A stretch of 6,834 nt of DNA from a virus: UHGV virus genome UHGV-1443059, one strand, 5' to 3'. The notes beneath the pieces were generated by a model. That model had not been told where the DNA came from, ran no database searches, and worked only from the letters and a program-made list of their open reading frames with translations. Within the stretch, counting starts at the first letter, position 1. Each line of letters begins with the position of its first letter. Both the position numbers and the translations under genes were made by a program. Shown in pieces: positions 2,094 to 6,834 of the stretch.

Positions 2094-3359
2094 ATGCGCT
2101 CTGTTATTGTTGCTTTTTTATTTGCCTATTCATTCTGCGTTTCTGCTGAAACTGTTAATTTAAATAATTCATCTGTTCGCTCATTTGTTCAGTGGTATTC
2201 TTCAAAAACTGGCAAGCCTGTTATTGTTAATCCTGATATTAAAGGAAACGTAACCGTATTTAATGCTGATGTTAATCCAACAAATATTGATGATTTCTTT
2301 AAGTCTGTTCTGAATGCTAACGGTTTTGTCATGCTTTCTGGCAATCCTGCGGTAGTCTCTTTGCCGTCTAAATTACCTTCACAGATGGTTTCGGATTCCG
2401 ATGATTCTGATAACCAGTCTTATGATACTTTTCCTTCTGAGCCATCTTACCAGCCAGTACCTGTGGCGCTTACGGTCAGAAATTTTAAGCTGACAAAAGT
2501 TAGATCGTCCGATGTTCAGCAACTGATTAAAATTTATCTTGATTCTAATGGTGGTGGTAATGTCGTGGATTATCCAGGCAATAACTCGCTGATTGTTTCT
2601 GCGCCTGACGAGCTGCTGCCGGTTCTGTCCGATTTTATCAATTCTGTGGATGTTGCCCGCGATCAGGTTCTCATTCAGTCGCTGATGTTTGAAACCAGCT
2701 TGTCTGATGGCGTTGATTTATCGTTTGCGGCAGGTTCTGCATCCGGTCATAAGGTTGCGGGGGGCTTTAATACTTCTGCACTGGGTAGCGCTCTTTCTAC
2801 GGCGGGCGGTTCTTTTGGTATTTTTGATGGTAACGTGTTGGCGCTGTCTCTGCGTGCTGTCCAGAGTAATTCACGCTCTAAGGTGATTTCAACGCCGCGT
2901 ATTCTTACTCAGTCTGGTCAGACTGGTTACATTTCCGTAGGTAAGAATGTGCCGTTTATCACCGGAAAGGTAACGGGCGAATCTGCCGGGGTAAATAATC
3001 CGTTTCAGACTATCGAGCGTCATGATGTTGGCGTTTCTCTCAAGGTAACGCCTGTTGTCATGGGTAACGGGCAACTAGTTCTGACTATCGACACTCGCGC
3101 TGATTCAATCAGCAATGATGATCAGGCATCCGATATTATTACTAATCAGCGCCAGATTCAGACGACAGTCCAGATTAAGGATGGTCAGACGTTGTTATTG
3201 GGGGGGCTTATCGATTCATCGTTCAGCAATGCCGAGCGTTCAGTTCCAGTTATAAGTAAAATTCCTCTTATAGGCTGGATTTTCAGTAGCAAGGCAGACA
3301 GCAATGAACAGCGTATTATGTATATTTTGCTTACAGCACATATCATTCGTCCACTTTGA
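2094..3359 (+). CDS. gIV: Gene IV outer-membrane secretin pIV (421 aa precursor with signal peptide)
   Basis: Start ATG 2094 preceded by AGGAG (2079-2083); the ORF-track start at 2001 is an upstream in-frame extension overlapping gene I. Signal-peptide-like N-terminus MRSVIVAFLFAYSFCVSA|ET. Extensive similarity to M13 pIV, e.g. VTGESAGVNNPFQTIER, DGQTLLLGGL, SKIPLIGWIFSS versus M13 VTGESANVNNPFQTIER, DGQTLLLGGL, SKIPLIGLLFSS. Confidence 0.93.
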   Translation: MRSVIVAFLFAYSFCVSAETVNLNNSSVRSFVQWYSSKTGKPVIVNPDIKGNVTVFNADVNPTNIDDFFKSVLNANGFVMLSGNPAVVSLPSKLPSQMVSDSDDSDNQSYDTFPSEPSYQPVPVALTVRNFKLTKVRSSDVQQLIKIYLDSNGGGNVVDYPGNNSLIVSAPDELLPVLSDFINSVDVARDQVLIQSLMFETSLSDGVDLSFAAGSASGHKVAGGFNTSALGSALSTAGGSFGIFDGNVLALSLRAVQSNSRSKVISTPRILTQSGQTGYISVGKNVPFITGKVTGESAGVNNPFQTIERHDVGVSLKVTPVVMGNGQLVLTIDTRADSISNDDQASDIITNQRQIQTTVQIKDGQTLLLGGLIDSSFSNAERSVPVISKIPLIGWIFSSKADSNEQRIMYILLTAHIIRPL

Positions 3360-3403
3360 TGGATAGCGGGTAGGTGCGTAAGCCCTGCTCGCTATCCATC
3401 AAA
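3355..3403. repeat. Extended inverted repeat/hairpin overlapping the gene IV stop codon (14-bp perfect arms tttgatggatagcg / cgctatccatcaaa, with further inner pairing and a GTAA-containing loop)
   Basis: Arms 3355-3368 and 3390-3403 are exact reverse complements; inner pairs 3370-3374 with 3384-3388. No U-run follows, so not a canonical intrinsic terminator. By analogy with the Ff intergenic region this is where the packaging-signal hairpin sits. Confidence 0.6.
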
Positions 3404-3428
3404 TGGACATTATTGATTGGGGTAACTA

Positions 3429-3737
3429 ATGGATTCTTATGGGATTTTATCTGCTCTGGCAGAACGAACGATTACAGCGGAAGAAGCAAAAACAATGACA
3501 CTTGCAGCCAGAAGTTCTTCGGCTCAGGTAAATGAAGCATCACTTGCTCTGTTACTGATTGATAATACTCTGGATGCGATCAAAGCAGCTGCCAGTGAAG
3601 GGAAAGGATACACTTTACTTCCTTCTTATGAGATTTCTGTAAAAGCCATTGATTTAGCAGAAGAATTTTTAAGGAAACAATGCGGCTATGTTATTGATAA
3701 CCAGAATGGCGTAAGGACGGTCTATTGGTTTATATGA
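3429..3737 (+). CDS. Hypothetical protein, 102 aa (no recognisable motif; predicted soluble, helical N-terminal half)
   Basis: Intact ORF with ATG at 3429 preceded by GGGGT (3419-3423, 5-nt spacer); ends TGA 3735-3737 followed directly by TAA and a strong hairpin. Not homologous to any Ff protein I recognise. Confidence 0.5.
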   Translation: MDSYGILSALAERTITAEEAKTMTLAARSSSAQVNEASLALLLIDNTLDAIKAAASEGKGYTLLPSYEISVKAIDLAEEFLRKQCGYVIDNQNGVRTVYWFI

Positions 3738-3740
3738 TAA

Positions 3741-3810
3741 CCCCTGACAATGACAAAACTTGCTTTTGTTAGTGTCAGGGGTTGGCCAAGCCGAACAATT
3801 CTGTTTTTTT
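3741..3810 (+). terminator. Strong stem-loop (9 bp + 8 bp stem, 5-nt loop, 3741-3781) followed 22 nt later by a T7 run (3804-3810); candidate transcript end for the 102-aa ORF or a structured phage cis element
   Basis: cccctgaca at 3741-3749 pairs with tgtcagggg at 3773-3781; tgacaaaa at 3751-3758 pairs with ttttgtta at 3764-3771. The U-run is not immediately adjacent, so a terminator assignment is tentative. Confidence 0.35.
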
Positions 3811-3854
3811 AGCGTTATTGCTGATTCGGCGCGGCAGCATTACGAGGAGATAAA

Positions 3855-4088
3855 ATGCAATTTTTCACATCCAGCGATACTGTAATGTTATGTGCGAAGA
3901 CCTGCGATCGCTGTGGTCGCCATGCGAAGACGGTGGTAGATGACATTGAGTTCAATGAGTTTCTGTCTGTTAATCACTTAGCTGGATACGGTTCAATTTT
4001 TGGTGACAGTAATCGCTTAAAACTGGATTTATGCCAACATTGCCTGAAAGACGTCCTGGGCCAGTGGATTACGGTCTGTGACCAATGA
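3855..4088 (+). CDS. Small zinc-ribbon protein, 77 aa, with two CxxC pairs (C17-x2-C20 ... C60-x2-C63)
   Basis: Strong RBS GAGGAG (3844-3849) with 5-nt spacer to ATG 3855. Four Cys arranged as CDRC...CQHC, typical of a Zn-ribbon/treble-clef fold. Sits between the upstream hairpin/T-run and the dif site. Confidence 0.6.
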   Translation: MQFFTSSDTVMLCAKTCDRCGRHAKTVVDDIEFNEFLSVNHLAGYGSIFGDSNRLKLDLCQHCLKDVLGQWITVCDQ

Positions 4089-4126
4089 CGGCACCGGTAA
4101 CGCCAGTTCCCGCCATCCTTACCATT

Positions 4127-4154
4127 GGTGCGCATAATGTATATTATGTTAAAT
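4127..4154. other. dif: dif site (XerC/XerD chromosome-dimer resolution site): GGTGCGCATAA-TGTATA-TTATGTTAAAT, 28/28 identical to the E. coli chromosomal dif consensus
   Basis: Exact match read directly from the sequence to the well-known E. coli dif 28-mer (XerC arm, 6-bp central region, XerD arm). XerC arm faces the phage genes, XerD arm faces the recombinase genes. Confidence 0.9.
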
Positions 4155-4245
4155 TTAGTCCGTCGGTCATTTAGTTCATAACCGGCCACAGGATACGATT
4201 AATCATACACTTACCTACCCCTCTATCTTCTTCTTGCAGGACGTT

Positions 4246-5700
4246 ATGTTTGTCGGTTACTTTGTTCATATCCACACCATTGATAAGGTTAAGTGCCGCG
4301 TGTTCATACTTACACAACTCAATATCAACCAACGGCAGCGTTTATGGGCACTGATGGATACTCACACGCGCCAGCCGCTTTTATATCCGTTAATATATCT
4401 TATCGACCATCTTGCTTTGCGTTCATCAGCCACGCAATCCGCTTCACTTCAAGCGCTCAAGTTTTTCTATGAATTCTGGCACCAGAAACATGGTGTGACT
4501 TTTTGCTTCAGTTTCTATTCCTCGAACCACAATCCATTGATTGCCATTGATGAACTTACAGCCTTTTTTCATTATCTGGAAAATACGCATTTATATGTAC
4601 CAGCGTTAACCATAAGGTCTACTACGCAGACCACGCCTCAACGTTGTACAAATATCAGGCATGTACATTCGGTTATTCGTTTTATCAGATATTTGATTAA
4701 CACGTATATCTCGCCGAGATATATAGATGGCACGCCTAAAGAGCTTACACGACTTGCCACGCAGTTAACGGGACGTTTATCGATACATAAGGCAGAATTC
4801 CGTACTCTTACCCATTCTCGTCAGATGAACAATGGCACGACCCATAAACGCTTTCGAAGTCTGACTGCTGAGATGGTCATGGCTTTTTACCAAATCATTA
4901 CACCCGGTTCAATTTCAAAGAAAAACCCACTCAATCCCTTCCCCGCTGGTGAAATCCAGCTACGTAATTTTCTGATTTGCAGATTGCTTTTAAATTACGG
5001 ATTGCGTGTCAGTGAATTACTGCTTTTGGAGTGTCATTCGATCAAACCAAATCTCCGAGGGGATCAGTTCAGCCTGATTGTGACCACAGTAGATGACGAC
5101 GTTTCGGATCAACGAAAAAGATTGCCTTCATTAAAAAATGTTTATGCAAACCGGGTGCTGGCATTAGATAAACTGGACTTTCATTTTCTAAATATATATA
5201 TCCATAAAATCCGCCCTCAAGCCTCCCATAGTTTTCTGTTCACTTCCACCCAAAGACTACATCCGCCACTGTCATACCATGCAGTCTATGATATCTTTAC
5301 CCGTATTGATGACATTATGAGTGTGCAGTATCCTGAATATAAAAAAGATGAATATTATGATGCCATTGAAAGCATCTCGCCTCATATAACGCGGCATACT
5401 TGGGCTTATTTAACACTTCAACGTATTTATCGTGATAAACTTCAAAAAATTAAGGCCAACTCACACTTGGCAGCCATAGACTTTTCTATCGTTGGATTGA
5501 TGGATGAAGCCAAGGATGAATTACGGCTACTTGGCGGTTGGAGTCACAATAGCCATATGCCTGATCTTTACGCTAAAAGATTTCTATCTCAGCAGGCTAA
5601 TACGGCCAATCTTCAGCGAATTGTGATTGATAACGAAGCCCTGAAATCAACCTTTTCCCATGTATGCGATGAATGGAGTGCATATGAGTCGAATCAATAA
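4246..5700 (+). CDS. Tyrosine recombinase (phage-integrase family) with ~250-aa N-terminal extension; start codon uncertain (ATG 4246 chosen; TTG 4234 and ATG 4354 are alternatives)
   Basis: Catalytic-domain motifs are present in order: GLRVSEL (box I Arg, nt 5005-5007), HITRH (HxxR-H), LLGGWSH, and DLYAK (catalytic Tyr, nt 5569-5571); compare XerD GLRVSEL, HVLRH, LLGHSDL...IYTH. Confidence 0.88.
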   Translation: MFVGYFVHIHTIDKVKCRVFILTQLNINQRQRLWALMDTHTRQPLLYPLIYLIDHLALRSSATQSASLQALKFFYEFWHQKHGVTFCFSFYSSNHNPLIAIDELTAFFHYLENTHLYVPALTIRSTTQTTPQRCTNIRHVHSVIRFIRYLINTYISPRYIDGTPKELTRLATQLTGRLSIHKAEFRTLTHSRQMNNGTTHKRFRSLTAEMVMAFYQIITPGSISKKNPLNPFPAGEIQLRNFLICRLLLNYGLRVSELLLLECHSIKPNLRGDQFSLIVTTVDDDVSDQRKRLPSLKNVYANRVLALDKLDFHFLNIYIHKIRPQASHSFLFTSTQRLHPPLSYHAVYDIFTRIDDIMSVQYPEYKKDEYYDAIESISPHITRHTWAYLTLQRIYRDKLQKIKANSHLAAIDFSIVGLMDEAKDELRLLGGWSHNSHMPDLYAKRFLSQQANTANLQRIVIDNEALKSTFSHVCDEWSAYESNQ

Positions 5701-6834
5701 ACAGTTAAATGCGTCGAACAGCAACATTTACACACCTGTATTTGTTGAGAGTATTTTAAAGGTTAATATACCAGTTAGTATTTATCTTAAATCGGCAGAT
5801 CATTTTGATGACAAATATATCAGCTCAACAAGTGACAGTTGGGTATTCGATTATTCAGGAAGCCGCTGCTATGCCCACTTTCGTCAGGATAAAATCAGCA
5901 ACCAATTAATCAAATATATTTGCTTCCATTATGCATCTGCCAAGTGTCCAGCTCAGGTTCCTGGGGTACTCCATGCGTGGTCTTTGGCAACTGATCATTG
6001 CATAAGCAAATCTGCTTTCACTTTTACGGTGTTGAAAGATTACCTCGAAACTCAGGAAATTAAACCTCAATATTTCTACTTTATCATTTTCGGCCTAAAA
6101 ATCCTCTGTACCGAAGCATTCCCTGGTTTTACCCTCGAAGATTATGAAGACCTCGAATTCATCCCTCGCCCGCACTCCCATGACTGGGGAATCTATCAGG
6201 AAATTGATCATGTTCTGGATCCCCTCGAAAAAAACATGATCAGTAAAGGCTTGTTTGAAATGGCTGTGGCGATTCGGTATGGCGAAAACTACAGTCTGAA
6301 CACCATGCGAGATGCAGTAATTCTGGGACTGACGTATGTCACCGGTGCCCGACCGGTACAACTGGCCAAGCTGGCGGTAAAAGATTTACGTATTGATACC
6401 CGAAACTCCGAAACCGGATTAATACGATATAGCTTACTCCTTCCTTACGCCAAACAGCGGCACGTAACGACTGAACGTCTGTTTTTGGCGATTCCAGCTG
6501 AAATCGGCGCGTTGATTAGGCACTATATCGAGCGAGCGCAACTAAAACCTGATGGCAAGCTATTTGAATTTAGTAACTCTGCACCGTTTAATGTGTCCAG
6601 AGCGATTAACAAGGCCTTCCTCTGTTTCAGTCCGCCAGATTATCAGGCAGCCGTAAAGCGTGGCGAAGCGGCTTTGCCAACCATTACCCCGACCGACTTG
6701 CGCCACAACGTGGGGCATTCACTGGCTATGCAAGGGGTCAGCGCCGAGGAAATTGCGCATATTCTGGGACATAGCTCCCTTACTGTTGCCAAGTATTACA
6801 TTCTGGCGACGCCTGCACTGGCACTGATTCGAGC
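5684..6834 (+). CDS. Second tyrosine recombinase (phage-integrase family), 3' end outside the window; at least 383 aa
   Basis: Frame 2 is open from ATG 5684 to the window end (translated by hand, no stops). Motifs: TGARPVQLAKL (box I Arg), PYAKQRH (Lys), TDLRH (box II Arg-His), ILGHSSLTVAKYY (His plus catalytic Tyr). Start overlaps the upstream recombinase gene by 17 nt (stop TAA 5698-5700). Confidence 0.85.
   Translation, partial: MSRINKQLNASNSNIYTPVFVESILKVNIPVSIYLKSADHFDDKYISSTSDSWVFDYSGSRCYAHFRQDKISNQLIKYICFHYASAKCPAQVPGVLHAWSLATDHCISKSAFTFTVLKDYLETQEIKPQYFYFIIFGLKILCTEAFPGFTLEDYEDLEFIPRPHSHDWGIYQEIDHVLDPLEKNMISKGLFEMAVAIRYGENYSLNTMRDAVILGLTYVTGARPVQLAKLAVKDLRIDTRNSETGLIRYSLLLPYAKQRHVTTERLFLAIPAEIGALIRHYIERAQLKPDGKLFEFSNSAPFNVSRAINKAFLCFSPPDYQAAVKRGEAALPTITPTDLRHNVGHSLAMQGVSAEEIAHILGHSSLTVAKYYILATPALALIR

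Follow-up and report, generated by a model that had tools for sequence, protein, structure and literature searches.

The DNA analysed was a window of 6,834 nt (the whole stretch, one strand, 5' to 3') from UHGV virus genome UHGV-1443059. The region of interest was the 767-bp interval at 3360-4126, located between the secretin gene IV (gIV) of a filamentous phage and the attachment site dif. The window covers the right-hand end of a filamentous prophage of CUS-1/YpfΦ type that is integrated at dif. Two intact small open reading frames (ORFs) were present in the interval, and the coordinates given for them in a preliminary description, made from the letters alone, were confirmed from the ORF list. 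ORF A (3429-3737) encodes 102 aa with a pI of 4.7 and occupies a first variable slot. ORF B (3855-4088) encodes 77 aa with a pI of 5.4 and occupies a second. Both start with ATG and, like the hairpins and attachment-site features described below, are on the plus strand. Each also has the ribosome-binding site of its own that had been claimed, 5 nt before the ATG: a Shine-Dalgarno-like GGGGT for ORF A (3419-3423) and a Shine-Dalgarno AGGAG for ORF B (3845-3849), the latter kept as GAGG in the related loci L003 and L005. The spacer between the ORFs is 117 bp long and holds a twin hairpin (I2 and H2), while a further hairpin (I1) overlaps the gIV stop codon.

Of 5426 complete E. coli genomes, 49 contained the 767-bp interval at 99% identity or more, and tandem copies (two or more) were usual among the matching genomes. 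It was 99.7% identical in UM146, an O18:K1-type E. coli strain with this prophage, and the best match to the full window was strain KFu015. In UM146 and 1368KP the interval terminates a complete inovirus prophage sited between hipA and dif, with the gene order pII, pV, pVII, pVIII, pIII, pVI, pI, pIV. Both ORFs are annotated by PGAP in RefSeq genomes, as 'hypothetical protein'.

Gonzalez 2002 and Derbise 2007 are said to have reported the YpfΦ genes YPO2280a and YPO2281 and their CUS-1 homologues. This pair is described as adjacent to attR, with "no predictable function", in the place of ctxAB, and homologues exist in CUS-1, which is 99% identical to YpfΦ (PMC4266046). The position and order of ORF A and ORF B agree with that description. 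Both are pairs of small ORFs beside attR/dif, downstream of the secretion genes, and no essential difference was seen. ORF A and ORF B are thus taken, by position and by the published identity of the two phages, as probable homologues of YPO2280a and YPO2281. A pair of small genes beside dif had therefore already been published, and the idea in the preliminary description is not new. The end-located ORFs are named there as an open question (PMC4266046).

Occurrence of the genes and hairpins in related phages

The gI, gIV, ORF A, ORF B and pII sequences were compared by tblastn to related loci (numbered with the prefix L). ORF A and ORF B were both present, always together, in CUS-1/YpfΦ-type loci and were 100% conserved within the lineage proper. 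Salmonella relatives (L055-57, L067 and L126) had gI and gIV of 93-96% identity and an ORF A allele of 60-61% identity, and lacked ORF B, which was replaced by an unrelated 300-bp segment. Loci of Phytobacter (L003) and Klebsiella (L005 and L079), together with L077 and L078, encoded an ORF B of 56-79% identity right after gIV and no ORF A; gIV was merely 23-29% identical in L003, L005 and L077-79. Neither ORF was found in fourteen further viral contigs (within L122-123, L128-130, L132 and L135-143). Slot 1 was occupied by a conserved basic ORF of 82 aa (MSVKSRVRDRL...WWW) in the eight of these loci that were read in detail, and slot 2 by an ORF of 58-145 aa in L122, L129, L132 and L139. ORF A and ORF B have been gained and lost independently of one another and of the core genes. 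The two-gene cassette proposed in the preliminary description does not describe the related inovirus prophages, as the slots of relatives contain ORF A alone, ORF B alone or other ORFs.

The basic 82-aa ORF (MSVKSRVRDRLP...PFAWWW) was located at 7288-7536 in L143, 10389-10637 in L132, 7231-7479 in L129 and 8731-8979 in L122, and it occurs with both morphogenesis types. A segment of about 300 bp is common to Salmonella phage L055 (7430-7690, in the place of ORF B) and L078 (4110-4400, after ORF B) and may encode a minus-strand ORF of 60-82 aa.

ORF A and ORF B both encode proteins and evolve under purifying selection. The ratio of nonsynonymous to synonymous substitution (dN/dS) was 0.14-0.16 for ORF A compared to the Salmonella allele (60-61% amino acid identity) and 0.11 for ORF B compared to the Phytobacter copy (79% identity). 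Synonymous sites were saturated in more distant ORF B pairs, with a pN of 0.23-0.33. The exact ORF A protein and the exact ORF B protein were each found on at least 1000 contigs, in Enterobacterales. The earlier view of two intact small ORFs in this place, with no counterpart in Ff phages (f1/M13/fd), is supported. They are conserved and look expressed, and non-conservation as coding sequence was not seen (dN/dS 0.11-0.16). The dS of ORF A against the Salmonella allele was 1.6-1.8, whereas that of the flanking gI and gIV was 0.37-0.38, four to five times lower. This excess points to exchange of the slot content as a module. Identity between the window and Phytobacter L003, where gIV is 28% identical, was confined to the stretch from hairpin I2 to dif (window 3748-4154; 83% at the DNA level).

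Hairpin I1 (3349-3408) has core arms at 3355-3374 and 3384-3403, which are 20 nt long and 90% complementary, and a folding energy of -24.5 kcal/mol (z -9.2). It is the strongest hairpin of the interval and was absent from the preliminary description. Hairpin I2 (3739-3783), the first half of the twin, has a 20-bp stem with arms at 3739-3758 and 3764-3783. Hairpin H2 (3785-3835), the second half, has a GC-rich stem and a T-rich loop of about 30 nt. The folding z-score of 3735-3856 was -5.3. Across the entire phage unit (8.7 kb), no inverted repeats are stronger than I1, I2 and a hairpin at the phage attachment site (attP).

An alignment of I2 and H2 from six distinct phages was tested for covariation with slid-partner controls and 500 shuffles. 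Paired cells made up 92.9% of the alignment compared to 32-49% in the slid controls. Compensatory changes on both sides were found at 10 of 30 pairs (7 of 20 in I2 and 3 of 10 in H2), and the observed covariation score was reached by none of the 500 shuffles. One pair appears as T-A, G.A and G-C among near-identical CUS-1 copies. Two pairs are G.T wobbles in all or half of the sequences and the minus-strand fold has fewer pairs, which argues that the structure matters on the plus strand, the virion strand and mRNA sense. For I1, two to three compensatory pairs keep the stem among ORF A-bearing variants, and a different GC-rich hairpin is present at the same position in phages with the other gIV type; I1 is specific to the morphogenesis module. 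Scanning viral contigs for the I2 core recovered 23 loci. Wherever such a locus spanned the replication gene, pII was 86-100% identical to CUS-1 pII, even when gI and gIV were 26-28% identical. Rfam gave chance matches to miRNA precursors on I1 and nothing else.

The preliminary description had read a strong hairpin plus T-run between the ORFs as a sign of independent transcription. The hairpin is real, with its 20-nt arms and z-score of -5.3, but the T-run (3803-3810) is about 20 nt past the I2 stem and inside the H2 loop, so it is not a canonical intrinsic terminator. In a consensus scan, the region had no terminator-like sites, and nothing resembling a promoter preceded ORF A or ORF B. Independent transcription is thus not borne out and the ORFs are probably read through from the phage operon, as neither a promoter nor a terminator of their own can be seen.

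The ORF B family and ORF A

ORF B encodes a four-cysteine zinc-ribbon protein with two CxxC motifs (residues 17-20 and 60-63) and a GYGSIFGD loop that is conserved. The family core, CxxC...GYGS[IV]FGDG...CxxC followed by a C-terminal helix, is present in ORF B. In an alignment of 61 sequences C20, C60 and C63 were invariant and C17 was present in at least 90%. Asp, Glu and Gly make up most of the conserved residues of the family. Searching 1.84 billion representatives with a profile identified 1238 relatives at E<=1e-3, a number that fell to 611 at E<=1e-10. Their hosts included Proteobacteria, Desulfobacterota, Bacteroidota, Chloroflexota, Nitrospirota and others, and many were on viral contigs not of inoviruses. 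The family is acidic, with a median pI of 4.97 and 90% of members net negative. No covering Pfam or NCBIfam model and no PDB sequence was found for it, and tblastn of ORF B against isolated phage genomes returned nothing. A PDB search with the 61-sequence profile gave chance matches to C2H2 zinc fingers alone (E >=0.015), which were rejected. ORF B appears to belong to a large uncurated family of acidic four-cysteine zinc ribbons associated with mobile elements.

Of 43 proteins with 130 aa or more, 38 had the ORF B-type domain at the N-terminus. Among 51 longer family members the tails included PF09722 (Xre/MbcA/ParS toxin-binding) in eight, TacA1 in one and DUF4926 in two, and four family members had a tandem duplicated domain. 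The L078 phage copy of ORF B had a weak CcdA-like tail (E 0.009, below threshold). A GNAT gene is located 19 bp downstream of the genomic ORF B homologue in L028. MbcA/ParS/Xre and TacA antitoxins have a DNA-binding domain, helix-turn-helix (HTH) or ribbon-helix-helix (RHH), at the N-terminus. Judged from these architectures, the ORF B domain would belong to the antitoxin world, in the slot usually held by a DNA-binding domain. The zinc ribbon takes the N-terminal place in eight relatives of PF09722 type and one of TacA (PF08681) type, but unlike these type II antitoxins ORF B consists of the domain only, lacking a toxin-binding tail and an adjacent toxin gene. The acidity of the family favors a role in protein contact or dimerization over DNA binding. 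ORF B most likely acts through protein-protein contact, as a dimerizing, regulatory or decoy module in toxin-antitoxin or defence-type interplay, and would less likely be a secreted virulence factor.

ORF A relatives formed about ten database clusters, exclusively in Enterobacteriaceae inoviruses. The C-terminal two-thirds of the protein is conserved and the N-terminus is variable. A second word-index search using the ORF A alignment yielded no additional relatives, and no toxin family match was found for ORF A in Pfam, NCBIfam or PADLOC. ORF A is probably a lineage-restricted acidic cytoplasmic protein. Both proteins gave full-length matches to PHROG families of unknown function (ORF A to phrog_4115, 2e-68; ORF B to phrog_5435, 4.5e-46). 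Profile searches with Pfam, NCBIfam and PADLOC otherwise returned sub-threshold noise, the sole PADLOC match for the two ORFs being a weak one to Cas8b (E 0.023). AF2 models were obtained for both proteins (pLDDT 72 for ORF A and 64 for ORF B), with no informative fold match. The ORF B model was a unit of zinc-knuckle, beta-hairpin and helix.

Apparent recurrent fusions of pII to ORF A in the ORF A 90% cluster were rejected, as these were plain pII fragments joined by one chimera. Two in-frame fusions were seen elsewhere. In L058 (Citrobacter youngae, 2807-3142) pII residues 1-42 are joined to ORF A residues 35-102, the junction having arisen at a CGGCTC...ATGAAGCA microhomology. In L120 (386-703) the first approximately 84 residues of pII are fused to the last approximately 21 residues of ORF B. 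Both are decayed prophages with all structural genes deleted and are uninformative on the cis elements.

Interpretation of the interval

The circular map of the phage reads gIV, I1, slot 1, I2/H2, slot 2, attP, left-end cargo, regulators and pII. The intergenic region (IG) of Ff phages lies between gIV and gII and contains the packaging hairpin, then the minus and plus origins. The circular order here is the Ff order (gIV, packaging hairpin, origins, gII) plus insertions. The stems, like those of the Ff IG, are strong, plus-strand specific and evolutionarily maintained, and are candidate cis elements. The sequences, unlike the order, are unrelated to Ff, there is no Ff nick consensus, and the elements are parted by the accessory ORFs and then by attP, cargo and regulator genes. 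The preliminary description had the two ORFs replacing the Ff IG. The covarying elements between the ORFs and at the gIV stop contradict this, and their position in the same gIV-to-gII order indicates that the IG was expanded and not replaced. The possibility it had raised of a structured non-coding region is half right, as the spacers look like a replication and packaging region; the ORFs are separate from it.

Window 3349-4155 therefore probably corresponds to the intergenic region of Ff phages, here in a CUS-1/YpfΦ-type inovirus at dif and expanded by two variable slots for accessory genes. The order would be the gIV stop with I1, slot 1 with ORF A, the twin hairpin I2 and H2, slot 2 with ORF B, and then the attP arm and dif. 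The hairpins would be cis-acting single-strand elements: I2/H2 an origin region that goes with the pII module, and I1 either a packaging signal or a gIV 3' stem that goes with the morphogenesis module. ORF A and ORF B would be non-essential 'moron' genes, probably transcribed by the read-through described above. A bolder version is possible, though doubtful. In it the cis elements are split (I1 for packaging, I2 and H2 for the origin) and the two slots are hot-swapped among unrelated dif-integrating inoviruses, possibly by CTXΦ-like hybrid replication across heterologous tandem prophages, while the ORF B family is a new acidic N-terminal antitoxin module whose solo phage copies would act as protein-binding modulators or decoys.

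Several observations weigh against the expanded-IG reading and the role suggested for ORF B. The Ff pII nick sequence GTTCTTTAATAGTGGACT had no match within three mismatches in the whole prophage. Position, strand bias and co-occurrence are the only grounds for the origin and packaging assignment. I2 and pII are contiguous across attP and the regulators, so that their co-occurrence could reflect one mosaic block and not a functional pairing, and the hairpins might instead serve the mRNA, by affecting its stability or by attenuation. The ORF B model has a poor pLDDT (64) and no PDB neighbour. The neighbours of 50 genomic ORF B homologues were heterogeneous and noisy, with no constant partner. 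The N-terminal slot of antitoxins is normally DNA-binding, which conflicts with the acidity of the ORF B family.

It has to be asked whether ORF A and ORF B work as a single unit beside attR, be it a toxin-antitoxin pair or a lysogenic-conversion operon like ctxAB. The genes are adjacent and co-directional, at the position between morphogenesis genes and attachment site that ctxAB holds in CTXΦ; this ctxAB-like position had been pointed out in the preliminary description and the literature agrees (PMC4266046). They are invariably together and fully conserved in the CUS-1/YpfΦ lineage proper, ORF B relatives are fused to antitoxin tails, and inoviruses often carry toxin-antitoxin modules (PMC6813254). 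However, related phages have either gene on its own, the 117-bp spacer between the genes contains conserved structured elements, both proteins are acidic, ORF A has no toxin family match in the searches above, and neither ORF scored above the curated Pfam or NCBIfam cut-offs. A toxin-antitoxin pair, one of the functions first suggested, is for these reasons very unlikely. The secreted-toxin analogy fares no better, as no hydrophobic N-terminal signal was visible on reading either sequence and no toxin family hit was obtained. Like ctxAB, ORF A and ORF B are accessory genes of an inovirus that integrates at dif, and are placed between its morphogenesis genes and the Xer site. They differ in having no homology to ctxAB, in not being an operon (each occurs alone), and in being small and acidic with no visible signal peptides and a conserved structured element between them. 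At the other extreme, the interval could be essentially a non-coding origin and packaging region in which the ORFs are incidental frames. Three strong hairpins with covariation at the Ff IG position would suit this, but the hairpins are outside the ORFs, both ORFs have a good Shine-Dalgarno sequence, both frames are intact in hundreds of contigs, and the ORF B family spans many phyla. The selection analysis (dN/dS 0.11-0.16, saturated synonymous sites) refutes it for the ORFs, leaving it extremely improbable.

A DNA-binding role for ORF B is unlikely, though better placed than either of these. ORF B would then be a zinc-ribbon regulator that replaces the antitoxin HTH or RHH domain and controls phage or host transcription, or aids Xer recombination at attP. 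The domain does fill the N-terminal position of the DNA-binding domains of MbcA/ParS/Xre and TacA antitoxins, the tandem duplicated versions suggest a dimer, and ORF B is 40 nt from dif and travels with the I2-to-dif block between unrelated phages. Against this, the family is acidic (90% of members net negative) and its conserved residues are largely Asp, Glu and Gly. Salmonella and L132-type relatives sit at dif with no ORF B, and in L005 and L078 ORF B is 0.4 to 3.5 kb from the site. No Pfam match to an Xer accessory or DNA-binding family was obtained, and in particular no DUF3653/HTH domain of a XafT-type Xer activation factor, a protein encoded beside an attP without a XerD arm, was found by Pfam in ORF A or ORF B. 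A similarly low probability is given to the ORFs being anti-defence or superinfection-exclusion factors, small acidic inhibitors protecting the phage or lysogen. The size and acidity of both proteins and their location in hot-swappable slots fit such a role, accessory genes with such roles are known in inoviruses, and the other prophage end has variable defence-like cargo (a DpnII/MboI-type nuclease domain protein in 1368KP). YpfΦ gives partial superinfection protection, but this is credited by analogy to an RstR-like repressor (PMC4266046). Acidity is a weak criterion, and neither a PADLOC hit nor a fold match to a known inhibitor was obtained.

Accessory toxin-antitoxin and regulatory modules at the ends of other inoviruses, such as Pf4 PfiAT and KKP (Roux et al. 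2019), are likewise variable small-gene modules that are exchanged horizontally. Unlike those modules, ORF A and ORF B have no recognisable toxin, kinase or repressor domain. CUS-1 and YpfΦ give a modest fitness gain in the host to invasive E. coli K1 and pandemic Y. pestis. The new leads here are the covarying hairpins, the link of the ORF B family to antitoxin architectures and the independence of the two genes. ORF A and ORF B should be treated separately and not as an operon, and a way into ORF B is offered by its family, which has more than 1200 clusters and is linked to antitoxin architectures. The conserved hairpins are concrete candidates for the unmapped origin and packaging signal of the phage family, and would be useful for vectors and prophage curing.

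Attachment site, prophage ends and neighboring genes

The gIV secretin (2094-3359, 421 aa) is the last morphogenesis gene and matched Pfam Secretin (6.6e-43), GspD N0 and Secretin_N; its coordinates agree with PGAP in UM146 and 1368KP. Upstream of it Pfam identified the C-terminus of pIII, a DUF5455 pVI-like gene (6.7e-09) and Zot/pI (Zot 6.2e-41). The inovirus morphogenesis genes pIII, pVI, pI/Zot and pIV are thus directly upstream of the interval, as expected of a CUS-1/YpfΦ-type element.

The dif site (attR, 4128-4155) is an exact match to the 28-nt E. coli XerC/XerD site GGTGCGCATAATGTATATTATGTTAAAT, and the phage ends inside it. It is preceded by a conserved phage arm (4098-4127) with 88-96% identity at the same position in L055, L067 and L078. 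A hybrid site, GGTGCGCATAATGTACGACTCGTTATG, is present at attL and at the tandem junction, and a hybrid site GGTGCGCATAATGTACGACTCG was found at attL and the junction in L001 and L002. The intact dif at the right end and imperfect sites at attL and the tandem junctions are as expected for integration at dif. At the tandem junction of L002 (12765-12860, and likewise 4095-4190) attP has two inverted XerCD-like sites, ATTGGTGCGCATAATGTACGACTCGTTATG and inverted CATAACGTCATTGTGCGAACCAAT, which flank a GC-rich hairpin with 24-nt arms. The layout matches a folded single-strand attP of the CTXΦ type, which has been suggested for YpfΦ (PMC4266046).

A tyrosine-recombinase island is located 3' of dif, outside the phage. 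The divergent recombinase (window 4234-5700, continuing to 6834) matched phrog_18324 (2e-89) and, below the Pfam cut-off, Phage_integrase (7.7e-05). PGAP annotates the recombinase after dif as one of two site-specific integrases. Of the 321 E. coli genomes matching window 3300-6834, most have the island but not the phage. An IS3 element separates dif from the island in 1368KP.

Cargo near attL varies by strain (4198-5269 on the minus strand of L002 compared to 1479-2233 of L001). It comprised the DpnII/MboI-type nuclease-domain protein (6.9e-59) and DUF6953 in 1368KP, and an 'ECs_2282 family zinc-binding protein' and a hypothetical protein in UM146. The left prophage end is a further variable slot, possibly related to defence. 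Several TGAACTCA-like repeats were present in the divergent region of L002 between a 60-aa gene and pII (6040-6200), along with a 13-nt palindrome at 5802-5830. These repeats and the palindrome may be operators or iterons.

In L078 a 1.5-kb remnant of a second inovirus (4419-5977) lies between the junction site of the first phage and the true dif. It contains a 77-aa ORF with a weak, below-threshold match to Phage_Coat_B (E 0.0016) and a 334-aa ORF, and its last approximately 25 nt before dif match the CUS-1 right end. Heterologous inoviruses can therefore lie in tandem at dif, giving an opportunity for block exchange. Frameshifted variants of ORF A and ORF B (P0008 and P0014) come from a contig of 5,005,213 bp. 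In E. coli EC5502 (NZ_CP092647.1) the 767-bp region was found at 16 places in one chromosome, explained either by a tandem prophage array of very large size or by an artefact of long-read assembly.

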